Assembly: GCA_048939765.1 (NCBI GenBank)
Contig: JBHLPF010000054.1
Coordinates: 1 to 15,745 of the forward strand
Origin: Promethearchaeota archaeon
GTDB taxonomy: Archaea; Asgardarchaeota; Thorarchaeia; Thorarchaeales; Thorarchaeaceae
Direction of reading: 5' to 3'
Length of the DNA: 15,745 bases
A program made the translations under genes and the position numbers. Numbering within the stretch: the first letter of the stretch is position 1; each line of letters begins with the position of its first letter. Below the pieces are notes generated by a model that had not been told where the DNA came from, searched no databases, and saw only the letters and a program-made list of their open reading frames with translations. This document shows positions 5,266 through 10,917 of the stretch, in pieces.

Positions 5266-5670
5266 ATGGGAGAAACATTCAAGCTCTACCTCCACGAGAT
5301 TCAACCGAGTCAACTCTATATCAGCCAGGCAAAGCTAGATGCGGTCATCAATGGGAGGAACAGGGGAAACTTGGCCATGTATGCGCCAATCCCGATCAAG
5401 GAGCTAAATGGGGAGCTTGTGTCTACAGATGGACACACACGAGGAATAGCGTGGCTACTTGAAGGCTATGAAGAAGCAGAGGTTGAATGGGAAACAGTAG
5501 AGATGGACTGGGAGGAATATGCGGTCTATGTCCAATGGTGCAAAGATGAGGGAGTGTTTTCCATAGAGGACCTCAAGAATCGCATCATTAGTCACGACGA
5601 TTACAAGGTACTTTGGTATGAGCGATGCAAAGCATTCCAAGATGAATGGGCCTTGAAAAAGCAAGACTAG
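5266..5670 (+). CDS. Small stand-alone ParB/sulfiredoxin-like domain protein
   Basis: IQPSQ at the N-terminus, PIPIK and the TDGHTR signature of the ParB/Srx fold, followed by an acidic, Trp-rich C-terminus. No HTH. Confidence 0.65.
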   Translation: MGETFKLYLHEIQPSQLYISQAKLDAVINGRNRGNLAMYAPIPIKELNGELVSTDGHTRGIAWLLEGYEEAEVEWETVEMDWEEYAVYVQWCKDEGVFSIEDLKNRIISHDDYKVLWYERCKAFQDEWALKKQD

Positions 5671-5713: not shown

Positions 5714-5756
5714 TTATAAGGAATTAACTATGGTTTATCAAATGATGGTTAGGTGA
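5714..5756 (+). promoter_or_regulatory. Candidate promoter (TTATAAG TATA box) and AGGTGA RBS for the tusA-dsrE-iscS-iscU operon
   Basis: TTATAAG at 5714-5720 with purine-rich sequence upstream; AGGTGA at 5751-5756, 8 nt before ATG 5765. Confidence 0.5.
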
Positions 5757-5764
5757 AATCCTTC

Positions 5765-6007
5765 ATGTCAAGTATTGAACCCGTTGAAACACTTGATTGC
5801 ATTGGACTGTTCTGTCCACAGCCGCTTTTCCAGACAAGAGAAGCAATAGACAGTATCGCAGCCGGCGAGGTCCTTGAACTGCTCGCCGATGATCCTGCGG
5901 CAGAGGAAGATATCAAACGATTCTGTAAGAGAACTGGGCATGAACTCCTCAGTTTCGAGAGACTGGAGGACGGTACACAAAGATTCCTGATCAGAAGAAA
6001 GGAGTGA
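5765..6007 (+). CDS. tusA: TusA/SirA-family sulfur carrier protein
   Basis: LDCIGLFCPQP (CPxP persulfide Cys), GEVLELLADDPAA..DI..FC...GH, final RFLIRR strand. ATG 5765 chosen because the GTG at 5753 lies inside the RBS. Confidence 0.92.
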   Translation: MSSIEPVETLDCIGLFCPQPLFQTREAIDSIAAGEVLELLADDPAAEEDIKRFCKRTGHELLSFERLEDGTQRFLIRRKE

Positions 6008-6014
6008 CTCAATC

Positions 6015-6368
6015 ATGAGCAGTATACTTTACGTGCAGACCAGCGACGACCCGGAGAGACAGTATTCACCCCTTGTCCTCGCTCAGAGCGCAAAGGCGAT
6101 GGATATCGAAGCGGCGGTATATTATCTCGGCCAAGGCCTGAGGATACTCCGGCCGGGTGCAGCTGACAAGATACAGGTTGGCAGCTTTCCAAGTGTCGCT
6201 GAAATGCTTAGGAAGACAATGGAGATGGGAATTAAGGTCTATGTGTGTGAAGCCTCAAAACAGATGCTCGGATGGGAAAAGGTAGAGCTAGTAGAGGGGT
6301 GCAAAATAGTTGGTGCGGCAACACTCAACGACTTAGTCCTAGAGCACGATGCCACAATGTGGTTCTAG
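6015..6368 (+). CDS. DsrE/DsrF-like sulfur-relay protein
   Basis: 117 aa with an A..A.AMD..A.VYY.G.G pattern, GIKVYVCEAS (conserved Cys) and VGAATL..L..E.D...F at the C-terminus. Starts 7 nt after tusA. Confidence 0.85.
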   Translation: MSSILYVQTSDDPERQYSPLVLAQSAKAMDIEAAVYYLGQGLRILRPGAADKIQVGSFPSVAEMLRKTMEMGIKVYVCEASKQMLGWEKVELVEGCKIVGAATLNDLVLEHDATMWF

Positions 6369-6378
6369 GTGAAAGCGA

Positions 6379-7557
6379 GTGGGCGACATAAGAGAGGTGT
6401 ATCTGGACTACCAAAGCTCGAAGCCTGTAGATCCGCGTGTCATTGAGGGCATGCTACCTTATTTCCATGAGCGCTTTGGTAATGCTTCAGCTCTTCACCG
6501 TGTGGGGGATGTAGCCACTGAGGCTCTTGAAGAGAGTAGACGGGTTATTGCGGATTACATCAATGCCGACTATGATGAGATCATCTTCACATCTGGTGCA
6601 ACAGAGTCGAACAACATGGCCCTAATAGGCTATGCCATGAAGAACAAGAGTAAAGGAAACCACGTAATCATTTCAGAGGTTGAACATATTTCTATTAGTA
6701 ACATAGGTAAGTACCTAGAGCGCCAGGGATTCGAGGTCTCAAAGGTGCCTGTGGATATGTATGGGCGAGTGCCATTGAAGAAATTGGAACGCAGAATAAG
6801 AGATGATACAATACTCATTTCAATTCAATATGCCAGCAATGAGATTGGTACGATTCAGCCAATCCAGGAAATTGGAAAATTGGCTGAAAAGAAGGGAATT
6901 GCATTTCACACCGATGCGGTAGCAGCTCAAGGATTAGTGCCAATTGACGTGAAGAGAGACAATATTCACCTCATGTCCCTGTCATCGAATGACTTCTATG
7001 GCCCCAGAGGAATAGGGGTACTGTTCATGAAGAAGAGATACAGAGTCAATCCCATTTTGATTGGAGGCGGACAGGAAAGAGGGTTGAGGTCAGGGACCGA
7101 GGATGTTGCAGGAATCGTTGGCATGAGACTTGCCATCGAAATAATGAAAGAAGAGATGCCAGACGAAGTCAAGCGGCTCCAGGGATATCGTGACCGCTTG
7201 ATTGACACAATACTGGATGAGGTCCCAGATAGCCATCTGAATGGTCACCCGACAGATAGACTCGCAAGCAATGCCCATTTCAGATTCGATGGAGTGGAAG
7301 GCGAATCGTTACTCTTGTCATTCAAGGACAAAGGAATTGCTGTGTCTACGGGCTCAGCCTGCACTTCCAAGACGCTTGCCCCATCAGCAACTCTTATTGC
7401 AACTGGGCTTATTCACGAAGAAGCACATGGATCACTACAGCTTACACCTGGAAGATTCAACACTGATGATGACATTGACAGAGTCCTCGAAGTAACTCCA
7501 GAGGTACTCATGCGAATTCGAGGTATGTCTCCAATCTATAAGCCAAAGGCGATGTGA
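6379..7557 (+). CDS. iscS: IscS/NifS class-I cysteine desulfurase homolog lacking the PLP lysine (Archaeoglobus-type)
   Basis: YLDY...P.D, FGN.S..H, IIFTSGATESNN, EH, NEIGTIQPI, HTDA, GGGQERGLRSGT, STGSACTS (Cys328 intact). The PLP-Lys motif reads SSNDFYGPRG. GTG start with an AGGTGA RBS overlapping the dsrE stop. Confidence 0.92.
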   Translation: MGDIREVYLDYQSSKPVDPRVIEGMLPYFHERFGNASALHRVGDVATEALEESRRVIADYINADYDEIIFTSGATESNNMALIGYAMKNKSKGNHVIISEVEHISISNIGKYLERQGFEVSKVPVDMYGRVPLKKLERRIRDDTILISIQYASNEIGTIQPIQEIGKLAEKKGIAFHTDAVAAQGLVPIDVKRDNIHLMSLSSNDFYGPRGIGVLFMKKRYRVNPILIGGGQERGLRSGTEDVAGIVGMRLAIEIMKEEMPDEVKRLQGYRDRLIDTILDEVPDSHLNGHPTDRLASNAHFRFDGVEGESLLLSFKDKGIAVSTGSACTSKTLAPSATLIATGLIHEEAHGSLQLTPGRFNTDDDIDRVLEVTPEVLMRIRGMSPIYKPKAM

Positions 7558-7563
7558 TGAAGA

Positions 7564-8346
7564 ATGAAGTCTACTCAATACAGTGAAAAGGTACTCGAGC
7601 ACTTTCGCAATCCACGAAATGTCGGTGTATTGGAAGGAGATGACGTAGCGAGCGGTCGTGTGGGAAATCCCACCTGCGGAGACCTGATGGAGGTTTTCAT
7701 CAAGGTCGAGGATGATAGAATAGTCGATGCGAAGTTCAGGACGTTCGGATGTGGTTCGGCGATTGCCACAAGTAGCATGACCACAGAGATGGTGAAAGGG
7801 ATGACACTCGACGAAGCCATGCATGTCACTAGAGAAGACGTCGCTGAAGAATTGGATGGTCTGCCCCCCATCAAGATGCACTGCTCTAATCTTGCTGCGG
7901 ATGCGCTTCATGAAGCCATCAAAGCCTATCGTATAAGGGAGAATCCCGATGAGGCAGCAGCAAAGGAACCCAAGTATGAGCAGCCGGCTTGTGCGATAAT
8001 CGGGCAGGACGAATTCCTTGATAAGGGGGTCTATCTCGATGTGGATGATCTCGAGGACTTCGCCGATCAAAGGGTGCTAGTCCTCCATAGCGGTGACGAA
8101 TCAATTGAGGCAGCTCTTGAACTCACAGCACAAACAGATCGTGTGGTCCTGTTGACTCAAGAGAAAGAAGTTGTCACCAATGACACACTACGGGAGGAAC
8201 TTGAAGCCTCCAGTGTGAAAGTAATCACTGAGTCACGGCTACTGGAAATTCGAGGCGAGTTTGAAGTAGAGAAGGTACTCGTTCATAATCTCGATGAGGA
8301 TGAGAAGTACGAACTGTTCGTGGATGCCGTTGTACTTATCGAGTAG
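7564..8346 (+). CDS. iscU: IscU/NifU Fe-S scaffold fused to a degenerate TrxR/FNR-type NADPH-binding domain
   Basis: aa 1-125: YSEKVLEHFRNPRNVG, GNPTCGD, FGCGSAIA, LPPIKMHCS (all three Cys plus Asp and His). aa ~146-260: GQDEFLDKGV...RVLVLHSGDESIEAALEL...VVLL...LEIRGE..VEKVLV.N......ELFVDAVVL resembles the TrxR-family NADPH domain. Confidence 0.9.
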   Translation: MKSTQYSEKVLEHFRNPRNVGVLEGDDVASGRVGNPTCGDLMEVFIKVEDDRIVDAKFRTFGCGSAIATSSMTTEMVKGMTLDEAMHVTREDVAEELDGLPPIKMHCSNLAADALHEAIKAYRIRENPDEAAAKEPKYEQPACAIIGQDEFLDKGVYLDVDDLEDFADQRVLVLHSGDESIEAALELTAQTDRVVLLTQEKEVVTNDTLREELEASSVKVITESRLLEIRGEFEVEKVLVHNLDEDEKYELFVDAVVLIE

Positions 8347-8395: not shown

Positions 8396-8854
8396 ATGCG
8401 GACTGTGAGAAAAGCCACAAGTTCTGACAAAGATCTCCTTGTCAATCTATTCATTTCCGAAGTAGAAGACAAGAAAGACCTCGCTGAAGCTTTTGCCACC
8501 GATCTACTAAGATTTCAGACCATTCTCAGCCTTGATGACGACAAAATTGTAGGCACAGTGAGCTGGGATGTTAGGGGTGGCCTTGATGATGGCGTTGTTG
8601 AGTTGATTGGGCTTGGAGTGAACCCTGATTATAGAAGAAAAGGCGTTGCAAGAGAACTTGTCCAAACACTGATCCATGATGTATCAAAGCACTACTCAGA
8701 ACAGGGCCACAAGCTGCGAGTTATCTACCTCTTCATGGAGAAGAGCAATGAGGGAGGAAGAGCGTTCTATGAGTCTGTTGGGTTCAAGGAGGTTGCTGAT
8801 GTTCCAGACCTCTATCCACACGATGATGCTGCTATATGGACTATGCATCTATGA
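8396..8854 (+). CDS. GNAT-family N-acetyltransferase (RimI-like)
   Basis: VRKAT..D start, LGVNPDYRRKGVARELV acetyl-CoA motif A, N.GGRAFYESVGF motif B. Confidence 0.88.
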   Translation: MRTVRKATSSDKDLLVNLFISEVEDKKDLAEAFATDLLRFQTILSLDDDKIVGTVSWDVRGGLDDGVVELIGLGVNPDYRRKGVARELVQTLIHDVSKHYSEQGHKLRVIYLFMEKSNEGGRAFYESVGFKEVADVPDLYPHDDAAIWTMHL

Positions 8855-10917
8855 GGGAAAGAATTGTGGTGTATTTAGAGAGAGGCTTCCCTAGTGAGGC
8901 GATCGATGAGATTGCGTGGAGTGAAAGCAACTCGAGGAAGCCGATATACCATATGCACAAATGGTTTGCTCGAAGAGTAGGTAGCACCTTCAGAAGCATA
9001 ATCCTAAGCCTCTTCCTGGACGAGAATCCAATGACGCGATTCTACGAAGAAGTCGTATTGAAGAACGCTGACGGCGAAATCCCGATTATATTGGATCCAT
9101 TCATGGGGGGTGGGACCACCATTGTTGAAGGGCATCGTCTCGGGTGCAGGACCATCGGTGTGGATATCAATCCCATGGCCTGGTTCATTACGAAGAAGGA
9201 GTTGGAGGCTGTTGACGTCACTCAATTGGAGGACGAATTCCAGATAATTAGAGAAGCCGTTGGGTCAAAGATCCTTTCTCTCTACAGGACGATGTGTCCT
9301 GAGGGACATGAAGCAGACACAATGTATACGTTCTGGGTAAGAAGTGTAAAATGCCAGTCTTGTGACTTTGAAGTTCCTCTCTTCAAATCCTTCATCATTG
9401 CGAAACCCAAGGACAAGAGTGTAGTCTATTTCTGCCCATCTTGCAATGAGATCACTGTAGATGGACCCCTGTGCCACTGTGGAATGGACCTGACTAATCC
9501 ATATGCCACAAACAAGAGCTACCGTTGTCCAAATTGCCATCATACAGGGGATTTGACAGAAGCATGGTTGGCGGAGGATAGCCCTCCCCGGGAGAGGCCA
9601 TATGCACTCGAGTTCCACTGTTGTAAATGTGGGAGAGGGTACAAGACGCCAGAGGATCTAGACCTCAAGAGGATAGATGATGCTGAGAGGGAGTATAGTC
9701 AAAGAAAAGGGAGGCTAAGGGGCATGTTGATTCCGAACGACATGGTTCGCTGGAGCAATATGGCTACAATGCGTCCACGTTGTAATGTGTATAGAAGATA
9801 CAGTGACTTCTTCAATTCGCGTCAATTGCTTGCCCTTTCCTTGATTCTCGAACAGATTCTGCAAGTTCACGACAGAACAATCAGAGAATTCCTGCTTCTC
9901 ACATTTTCAGACACTCTCAATGCCAACAACATGTTTTGTATCTACAATGTTCATGCTTCGAAACTTGAGCCTCTTTTCGGCGGACACTATTTTTCCCCGC
10001 CCACTACTCCAGTTGAAAACAATGTATGGGGTACAAGGGTTGGTCGGGGAAGCTTCAGTAGATATGTAACCAAGGGAATACGGGCTCTAAGGTATCAGAA
10101 GAGTCCCTACGAGATTCGTTTTGCTGACGGGCACTCTGGAAAGAGCGAGCCTACAAGAATTAGGGAGAAAGTCAGTGTAGGAGATAAGATAGAAGCTCAG
10201 TTTGTAGAAAGATTCCAAGACCTGCAGTTTCGGAAGAGTTCCTTGCTGAAATGTCAATCATCAGAGAACTTGGACTTTATCCCAGACAAAGCTGTCGATG
10301 CGGTAGTCACTGATCCTCCCTACTTCGACAATATCATGTACTCCGAGCTTTCAGAGTTCTTCTATGTATGGTTGCGCCCGCAATTGCATGAAGCATATCC
10401 CTCGATATTCGGTCGAGAATCCAGCAACAGTGCAGATGAAATCCTCGTGTACAATAAGACTGGCAAGGATGCCGACTTCTATATCGAATCCATGACACGG
10501 GTTTATAGTGAACTCCATAGAGTGATGAAGGACAATGCCAAACTCGTGTTCGTCTTCCAGCATAAACGACTCAAAGCGTGGTCCGCCATATTGCAGATTC
10601 TTGTGAATGCAAGATTCTTTGTGGAAGCGGTATATCCGACGCATGGCGAAACGCCCAGCGGTGTTAGAGCATATGGCATCAACCGCAATGCGCTTCTCGT
10701 ATGCAGAAAGGTGGCTGACTCAAAAGCTAAAACAGAGCGCGCTCCCAGAGATGTGGCAGTGAAGAATATTGGCGAAGTGAGCCGTTCATCCCTCATGCTT
10801 CACCTTGGAAAGGCATTAGCTGCCTACTCGCAATACCCAAGCGTACATGAGGGGAGAATAACTGATGAGTGCATCAAAGACTTTGAATCGTTTGTCAACG
10901 ATAAATTGATGCAATGA
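8851..10917 (+). CDS. Adenine-specific DNA methyltransferase with Zn-ribbon insert (COG1743/DUF1156-like)
   Basis: LERGFP...I..E, MHKWFARR, motif I LDPFMGGGT..VE, several CxxC/CxxH pairs (CPEGH, CQSC, CPSC, CHC, CPNC, CCKC), F..RQLLAL, motif IV TDPPYFDNIMYSELSEFFYVWLR. ATG 8851 overlaps the GNAT stop (ATGA). Confidence 0.85.
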   Translation: MRERIVVYLERGFPSEAIDEIAWSESNSRKPIYHMHKWFARRVGSTFRSIILSLFLDENPMTRFYEEVVLKNADGEIPIILDPFMGGGTTIVEGHRLGCRTIGVDINPMAWFITKKELEAVDVTQLEDEFQIIREAVGSKILSLYRTMCPEGHEADTMYTFWVRSVKCQSCDFEVPLFKSFIIAKPKDKSVVYFCPSCNEITVDGPLCHCGMDLTNPYATNKSYRCPNCHHTGDLTEAWLAEDSPPRERPYALEFHCCKCGRGYKTPEDLDLKRIDDAEREYSQRKGRLRGMLIPNDMVRWSNMATMRPRCNVYRRYSDFFNSRQLLALSLILEQILQVHDRTIREFLLLTFSDTLNANNMFCIYNVHASKLEPLFGGHYFSPPTTPVENNVWGTRVGRGSFSRYVTKGIRALRYQKSPYEIRFADGHSGKSEPTRIREKVSVGDKIEAQFVERFQDLQFRKSSLLKCQSSENLDFIPDKAVDAVVTDPPYFDNIMYSELSEFFYVWLRPQLHEAYPSIFGRESSNSADEILVYNKTGKDADFYIESMTRVYSELHRVMKDNAKLVFVFQHKRLKAWSAILQILVNARFFVEAVYPTHGETPSGVRAYGINRNALLVCRKVADSKAKTERAPRDVAVKNIGEVSRSSLMLHLGKALAAYSQYPSVHEGRITDECIKDFESFVNDKLMQ

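Follow-up and report, generated by a model that had tools for sequence, protein, structure and literature searches.

A tusA-dsrE-iscS-iscU operon with a lysine-less IscS in a Thorarchaeota-type genome, a candidate Fe-S assembly unit linked to sulfur carriers

The studied stretch is a contig of 15,745 nt, called the window below (contig C10 of a Thorarchaeota-type genome, 3.37 Mb and 88.5% complete). Its nearest public relatives are Thorarchaeota-type Asgard metagenome-assembled genomes, and protein identity to them does not exceed 94%. Our subject is an operon at 5765-8346 on the + strand with tusA, dsrE, an iscS-like gene and iscU, in that order, which we consider as a candidate unit for the assembly of iron-sulfur (Fe-S) clusters. 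The initial annotation, made from the sequence alone, had described four same-strand genes with gaps of 7, 10 and 6 nt, and the gene coordinates agree with this.

The operon and its proteins

The features of the operon and of the region just 5' of it are these:

5714-5719, + strand: candidate TATA-like box (TTATAA), about 46 nt 5' of the tusA ATG, read by eye
5752-5756, + strand: GGTGA, candidate ribosome-binding site 8 nt 5' of the tusA start, read by eye
5765-6007, + strand: tusA, 80 aa (PF01206, 1.7e-25)
6015-6368, + strand: dsrE, 117 aa (PF02635, 5.6e-17), a DsrE3-like carrier
6379-7557, + strand: iscS-like gene of the Archaeoglobus fulgidus IscS2 / MisS type, 392 aa, GTG start
7564-8346, + strand: iscU, whole gene, 260 aa (NifU_N, PF01592, 2.6e-49, residues 5-126)
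7564-7953, + strand: scaffold domain of IscU, residues 1-130, with C38, D40, C63, H106, C107 and LPPIK
7990-8346, + strand: acidic tail of IscU, residues 143-260, resembling a degenerate reduced nicotinamide adenine dinucleotide phosphate (NADPH) domain of thioredoxin reductase (TrxR) or ferredoxin-NADP reductase (FNR)

A second GGTGA, also read by eye, is a candidate ribosome-binding site 7 nt 5' of the iscS start.

The IscS-like protein matches Aminotran_5 (PF00266, 2.3e-70, residues 7-368), and its nearest solved relative is A. fulgidus IscS2 (4EB5_A, E 3.6e-132, residues 7-388). Its Schiff-base site reads SLSSNDFYGP, against ISSNDIYGP in A. fulgidus IscS2 and S-x-H-K in HK-type enzymes, and Asn204-Asp205 stands in place of His-Lys. 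Cys328, in the loop STGSACTS, is the sole cysteine of the 392 residues. This bears out two early statements about the protein, that it lost the lysine which binds pyridoxal phosphate and kept the mobile-loop cysteine, and that it corresponds to the A. fulgidus IscS with Asp at the lysine site. That protein is reported to have no desulfurase activity, to bind pyridoxamine phosphate and to give a Cys ligand to the [2Fe-2S] cluster of IscU (PMC8918507, PMC13066941, PMC7585200).

The lysine-less N-[D/E/S] sequences (89 rows) group in a single clade, with a support of 99, in a FastTree phylogeny. We compared pocket sites in these 89 clade members and in 29 HK-type relatives, at positions numbered after E. 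coli IscS:

Lys206: Asp in 86/89 of the lysine-less clade; Lys in 29/29 of the HK-type
His205: Asn in 89/89; His in 27/29
Gln183: Ala in 84/89; Gln in 21/29
Arg354 (substrate carboxylate): Arg in 0/89; Arg in 20/29
Thr76, His104, Asp180, Ser203, Cys328: kept in 88-89/89; largely kept

Cys328 itself is present in all 89. Judged by these residues, the part of the pocket that holds the ring appears to survive in this clade and the chemistry appears to be gone.

The genome holds a second lysine-less IscS paralogue (C81:13033-14355, + strand, equal to L091:7034-8353), with LDGHHIHGPKG and His in place of Lys. The Thorarchaeota-only clade of this paralogue has H, R, V or L at the lysine, and the stacking His is also lost in 5/6. 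This is an independent loss of the lysine, because the clade nests inside the HK-type clade. A short IscU adjoins this type of paralogue in relatives and none was seen there in this genome; a rubrerythrin-like gene lies 3' of it (L091:8882-9292).

The scaffold domain of IscU has everything that we looked for. The residues C38, D40, C63, H106 and C107 and the LPPIK motif are invariant in 35 relatives, the score against TIGR03419 is 191.6 (cut-off 187.9), the match to A. fulgidus IscU is 2e-45, and the domain model superposes on IscU structures with a root-mean-square deviation (rmsd) of 1.2-2.5 Å. The AlphaFold model of the whole protein (pLDDT 89.9) has two domains and a disordered linker between them.

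The second domain was initially annotated as a reductase domain on an intact IscU. The intact scaffold and the extra domain both held up; the reductase character did not. Residues ~140-257 give weak Pyr_redox matches, all below the Pfam cut-offs, and Foldseek finds the NADPH domains of TrxR and FNR (2ZBW, 3F8D, 3LZW) at an rmsd of 1.4-1.9 Å, with 21-28% identity over about 120 columns. The tail shares only this fold with thioredoxin reductase and ferredoxin-NADP reductase. A motif check found no flavin adenine dinucleotide (FAD) domain, no CxxC and no Gly-rich loop in it, with GGG changed to HSG and HRR to TQE. Because all of these are lost, it is unlikely that the tail reduces anything. With 32 Asp/Glu against 10 Lys/Arg it is strongly acidic, and it may be a structural or docking domain.

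In one Asgard genome from another family, the single-contig G036, an intein that contains a LAGLIDADG homing endonuclease sits within the IscU gene (L259:1191-2729, + strand). The NifU_N match is split in two there, and the break is near the first cluster cysteine.

Both carriers have their active cysteine. TusA passes PF01206 with 89.1 bits (cut-off 28.6) and has the CPxP active cysteine, which is Cys17 in LFCPQP; it aligns with E. coli Cys19 and is invariant in 33 sequences. The nearest solved structure is E. coli TusA (1DCJ/3LVJ, 1.6e-13). The E. coli-type equivalog NF001423 is matched at 64.3 bits, below its cut-off of 78, and on these scores the operon TusA is a member of the family and not an orthologue of the E. 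coli protein. We rejected two further ideas about TusA. Cys12 is present in 71/73 sequences of the subclade from Thorarchaeota and bacteria and is absent from deeper modules, so it is not a general resolving cysteine. A selenium reading had in its favor a weaker match to the YedF selenium family alone (1.3e-10), and we found no literature in support of it.

The active cysteine of DsrE, Cys78 in VYVCEAS, is invariant in 27 archaeal and bacterial sequences, among which the mean column identity is 82%. The nearest solved structure is 3MC3 (3.9e-13, with the YVC cysteine aligned), against 0.18 only for the DsrE2B structure 2QS7; the DsrE3-like label comes from such structure matches and not from a subgroup tree. 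3MC3 is Saccharolobus SSO1125, named DsrE3A (PMC11094781). Transfer of sulfur from a DsrE3-type protein to TusA has been demonstrated, in that direction (PMC4175335, PMC11094781).

A second relay locus exists in the same genome (C48:340-3083, L166), with a further TusA, a further DsrE and a DsrE/DsrF/DsrH trio that is TusBCD-like. The presence of this separate locus suggests that the carriers in the operon are a dedicated set.

Linkage of carriers and lysine-less IscS, and other Fe-S machinery

We examined the gene order in the 80 closest loci, which come from Thorarchaeota and at least six bacterial phyla (WOR-3, Zixibacteria, Aminicenantes, Stahlbacteria, Eisenbacteria, Actinomycetota and others), and counted neighbors only where flanking sequence exists. 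The gene tusA lies 5' of iscS in 70/70 and dsrE in 59/70, and iscU follows 3' in about 64/67, nearly always with the tail. Every readable IscS in the set has the S-x-N-D motif. The arrangement is found again in about 70 independent loci, archaeal and bacterial, and we do not think that it is due to chance. None of the flanking genes (LarE, M24 peptidase, alcohol dehydrogenase, GNAT, a 134-aa open reading frame (ORF)) is common to the bacterial loci. They are shared within Thorarchaeota only, and we regard the four genes as a unit that has been kept and moved together.

The initial annotation had proposed to check whether tusA and dsrE adjoin lysine-less IscS more often than HK-type IscS. Our control sample was 70 IscS-like loci that we took from 150 Asgard genomes, and the check comes out in favor of the lysine-less type:

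Lysine-less N-[D/E/S] IscS, Asgard sample: 31 loci, TusA-family gene within 3 kb in 25
HK-type IscS, Asgard: 34 loci, TusA-family gene within 3 kb in 2
HK-type IscS, cassette-bearing complete bacterial genomes: 5 loci, TusA-family gene within 3 kb in 0

There are several variants of the cassette. Some Thorarchaeota have about 2.5 kb inserted between iscS and iscU (L165 in genome G011 of the same genus, L014 and L023), and the insert holds a 542-aa ORF on the opposite strand that has no Pfam match (L165:4037-5662, - strand). Genome G004 has a truncated iscS, and its cassette is split into two pieces that lie far apart. In 14 bacterial loci rubrerythrin is encoded just 5' of the cassette and on its strand (for example L050:2459-3106, + strand). 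Another Asgard family encodes, on the same strand just beyond iscU and about 1 kb from iscS, a protein of some 800 aa that contains a TusA-like CPGP motif (L094:6634-9069, + strand; L096:1106-3541, - strand; L100:6627-9008, + strand; and L095:3-2192, - strand, which is cut by the contig end). On three metagenome contigs, copies of the DsrE gene without IscS have an FTR1-family iron permease beside them (L232:1133-2008, - strand; L239:503-1387, + strand; L244).

We then searched for the scaffold of the other large systems, SufB/D, with PF01458. All of the control genomes matched (14/14, methanogens included). This 88.5%-complete genome gave no match, and neither did 15/16 genomes from its genus, the complete Thorarchaeota chromosome CP070761 and the three complete chromosomes of WOR-3 that we searched. 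Among the 150 Asgard genomes, two further families are nearly without PF01458 (1/19 and 0/3), and both carry the lysine-less cassette at the loci that we examined. Searches for HK-type IscS came up empty for this genome, for five genomes from its genus and for the complete Thorarchaeota chromosome, and an A-type carrier was not found in this genome. The only NifU_N match in the genome is the one in the operon, and every IscU found in the lineage is by or near a lysine-less IscS. Because this pairing holds for every IscU found in an organism that is rich in Fe-S enzymes, it suggests that the lysine-less system is competent and central, the main route rather than a side copy.

Possible sulfur route and comparison with known systems

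We lean, with some reservation, towards the operon being an Fe-S assembly unit of the MIS or ISC kind, in which sulfur is relayed from DsrE to TusA and on to IscS and IscU and in which IscS is a non-catalytic adaptor. IscU would be the scaffold. IscS could not form an internal aldimine and has lost the residue for the substrate carboxylate, and it is for these two reasons that we assign it the part of a non-catalytic partner. It would bind IscU and contribute Cys328, which may bind the cluster, like its counterpart in the A. fulgidus structure, or relay persulfide. We infer that sulfur arrives as protein-bound sulfane sulfur, passed from Cys78 of the DsrE3-like protein to Cys17 of TusA, and from there to Cys328 of IscS or straight to IscU. 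The acidic tail of IscU, which has no cofactor, would serve as a structural or docking element. DsrE may first be loaded from the sulfide, polysulfide or thiosulfate of an anoxic sulfidic habitat, or by an orphan SufS-like desulfurase that is described below. The sequences themselves show which genes are present, the residue patterns, the conserved linkage and that no other type of scaffold was found in this lineage; the direction of flow, the sulfur source and the role of the tail are our interpretation.

A number of observations weigh against this relay. The lysine-less clade arose once in the tree. The linkage is therefore one old event, retained through rearrangements and at least one interdomain transfer, and not a set of independent co-occurrences. 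Six of the 31 lysine-less Asgard loci are without a nearby TusA (L111, among them, has no 5' sequence), and among 62 metagenomic loci that contain a DsrE of this subfamily, the lysine-less IscS is its neighbor in about 46, and about 16, in mixed contexts, have no adjacent IscS. We rejected on these grounds the idea that the DsrE subfamily is exclusive to the cassette, and with partners lacking at 6/31 IscS loci and about a quarter of DsrE loci, neither the carriers nor IscS can be obligatory to each other. Genome G050 has tusA-like and dsrE-like genes 3' of an iscS-iscU pair that is HK-type (L137:3405-5726, - strand). This is the sole same-strand exception among the HK-type loci, and it fits the canonical direction from IscS to TusA; because of it, carrier adjacency alone does not give the direction of flow. 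Contact of TusA or DsrE with IscS or IscU is our own proposal for this system. Free sulfide might be sufficient without any carrier in sulfidic habitats. Finally, orthologues of the SufS-like enzyme (E ~1e-111 to 1e-115) occur in 5/5 genomes of the genus that were checked, as well as in the complete Thorarchaeota chromosome.

This last point leads to the strongest alternative, that the machine is the same and depends on cysteine. The SufS-like enzyme, a type II desulfurase in which His-Lys and the catalytic Cys are intact (SVHKMCGP, GAHCVHP), is encoded at C12:48853-50097 on the + strand of this genome (L090:6866-8098), flanked by genes for an Lhr helicase and RPA. With cysteine as the source it could load TusA or DsrE, and these would then pass the persulfide to the lysine-less IscS-IscU pair in a kind of split ISC system. 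Its conservation and the lack of any SufB/C/D/E/U neighbor favor this. On the other side, the gene is unlinked to the cassette in all loci examined, and what crosses phyla is the set of four genes, with no desulfurase alongside. The usual acceptors of type II desulfurases are SufE, SufU or CsdE, and none of these was seen adjoining the SufS-like gene. We considered a 98-aa ORF 5' of it as a small acceptor and dropped it, as it has no family match and by eye is unlike SufE. All in all we find a cysteine-fed version unlikely.

It is a good deal less probable that IscU and the lysine-less IscS build clusters from free sulfide and that TusA and DsrE only buffer, detoxify, sense, protect or repair. 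There is a precedent in the SMS system, where sulfide-dependent assembly without a sulfurtransferase is reported, and a review draws the same for MIS (PMC13066941). Some lysine-less IscS-IscU pairs have no carriers nearby, and the rubrerythrin gene 5' of the cassette in the 14 bacterial loci hints at a stress context. However, both carrier cysteines are invariant, DsrE keeps its high column identity across two domains of life, and tusA is directly 5' in every one of the 70 close relatives with readable flanks. For these three reasons we regard the carriers as stoichiometric working partners rather than loose helpers.

Outward flow would have IscS-IscU supply TusA and DsrE with sulfur or selenium, destined for tRNA thiolation, synthesis of the molybdenum cofactor or selenium metabolism. 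It has behind it the canonical E. coli direction from IscS to TusA (3LVJ), the weaker YedF match and the HK-type exception L137. We consider it very improbable: an IscS that lacks the Schiff-base lysine and the substrate arginine, like its inactive orthologue in A. fulgidus (PMC8918507), generates no sulfur that it could donate, and a separate TusA with a TusBCD-like set is present in the genome.

Returning to the relay from DsrE through TusA, its IscS-IscU core is not new, as an inactive IscS-IscU pair is known already. The inactivity of A. fulgidus IscS and its cluster-bearing complex with IscU have been known for more than 10 years. The A. fulgidus IscS2-IscU structures (4EB5, 4EB7, 4HVK, and 4R5F for the D199K variant) show the same SSND, the loop Cys is kept and IscU is adjacent, and the published reading is alike, an inactive desulfurase that supplies a Cys ligand. 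One difference is the 118-residue TrxR-like tail on IscU here, compared with a crystallised A. fulgidus IscU chain (4EB5_C) of 153 residues. Sulfur carriers are unmentioned in the papers that we read. In Methanosarcina acetivorans the isc1 pair (IscS1, MA0808, and IscU1, MA0807) also has an IscS without the lysine and an enlarged IscU of 24.2 kDa; its gene neighbors are neither named nor interpreted in that paper, of which isc1 was not the object of study (PMC7585200).

MIS is described as an archaeal MisS-MisU pair homologous to IscS-IscU, and the same review calls it the least studied Fe-S system, with a debated sulfur source and electron donor (PMC13066941). The operon resembles it in having an IscS-like and IscU-like pair, in having no chaperones, A-type carrier or ferredoxin in the operon, in coming from an anaerobic archaeon and in its debated sulfur source. 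As defined by Garcia et al. (per PMC13066941), MIS has two components, and tusA (70/70), dsrE (59/70) and the scaffold tail are constant additions to them here, and in this lineage it occurs without an accompanying SMS/SufBC. The initial annotation had called the operon distinct from minimal MIS systems. This was overstated: in our judgement the A. fulgidus-type pair fits the description of MIS in that review, and the operon is an MIS with two carriers and a tail on the scaffold added, and no separate system.

The other known systems are further away. Canonical ISC needs an active HK-type IscS, IscA, HscBA and Fdx; here the lysine is lost and none of the others is in the window. The SUF and SMS systems are built on a SufB/D-type scaffold, for which PF01458 gave no match here. 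In E. coli the same families cooperate (IscS-TusA, 3LVJ, and the isc operon with IscU as scaffold), but there an active IscS is the sulfur donor and TusA the acceptor, and the tusA gene is unlinked to isc. The DsrE3-TusA relays of sulfur oxidisers have the same pairing and conserved cysteines (Metallosphaera cuprina, PMC4175335; Hyphomicrobium sHdr, PMC11094781). Those relays feed a sulfur-oxidising Hdr-like complex for energy metabolism, whereas the neighbors here belong to Fe-S assembly and the window has no sHdr genes.

What is new here is that this genome, 15/16 from its genus and the complete Thorarchaeota chromosome yielded no SufB/D and no normal IscS, and that every IscU found in them pairs with a lysine-less IscS. 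We found no paper that names or interprets the link to TusA and DsrE in the literature outside subscription journals. Carriers that are conserved beside a dead IscS are concrete candidates for the missing sulfur donor and the best clue to where the pair gets its sulfur, and an old question on the dead IscS-IscU pair becomes a direct experiment. As the cassette crosses between Archaea and Bacteria as a unit, it can be tested in more tractable hosts. The boldest version, which we regard as doubtful, is that Thorarchaeota and several other anaerobic lineages make all of their Fe-S clusters through dead IscS-IscU pairs and a dedicated relay from DsrE to TusA that takes its load from sulfide, polysulfide or thiosulfate in the environment. 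If true, this would be a housekeeping Fe-S pathway in which cysteine is never cleaved, and one that archaea and bacteria have exchanged in the form of a four-gene cassette.

Neighboring genes in the window

At 1731-2534 on the + strand the window has a gene for a LarE-family ATP-dependent sulfur transferase (TIGR00268, 252 bits, above cut-off), which is syntenic with the cassette in Thorarchaeota only. We considered LarE as a member of the system and dropped it, as the adjacency is common to Thorarchaeota only and occurs in none of the bacterial loci. Just 5' of the promoter region of the operon is the 134-aa ORF (5266-5670, + strand); it has no family match, and its position is kept in 15 Thorarchaeota loci. 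On the 3' side, a 693-aa DNA methylase with DUF1156 similarity is encoded at 8836-10917 on the + strand and overlaps the end of the GNAT gene (8396-8854) by 19 nt. Its match to NF042963, an anti-phage-associated family, is 1.3e-37 and far below the cut-off.

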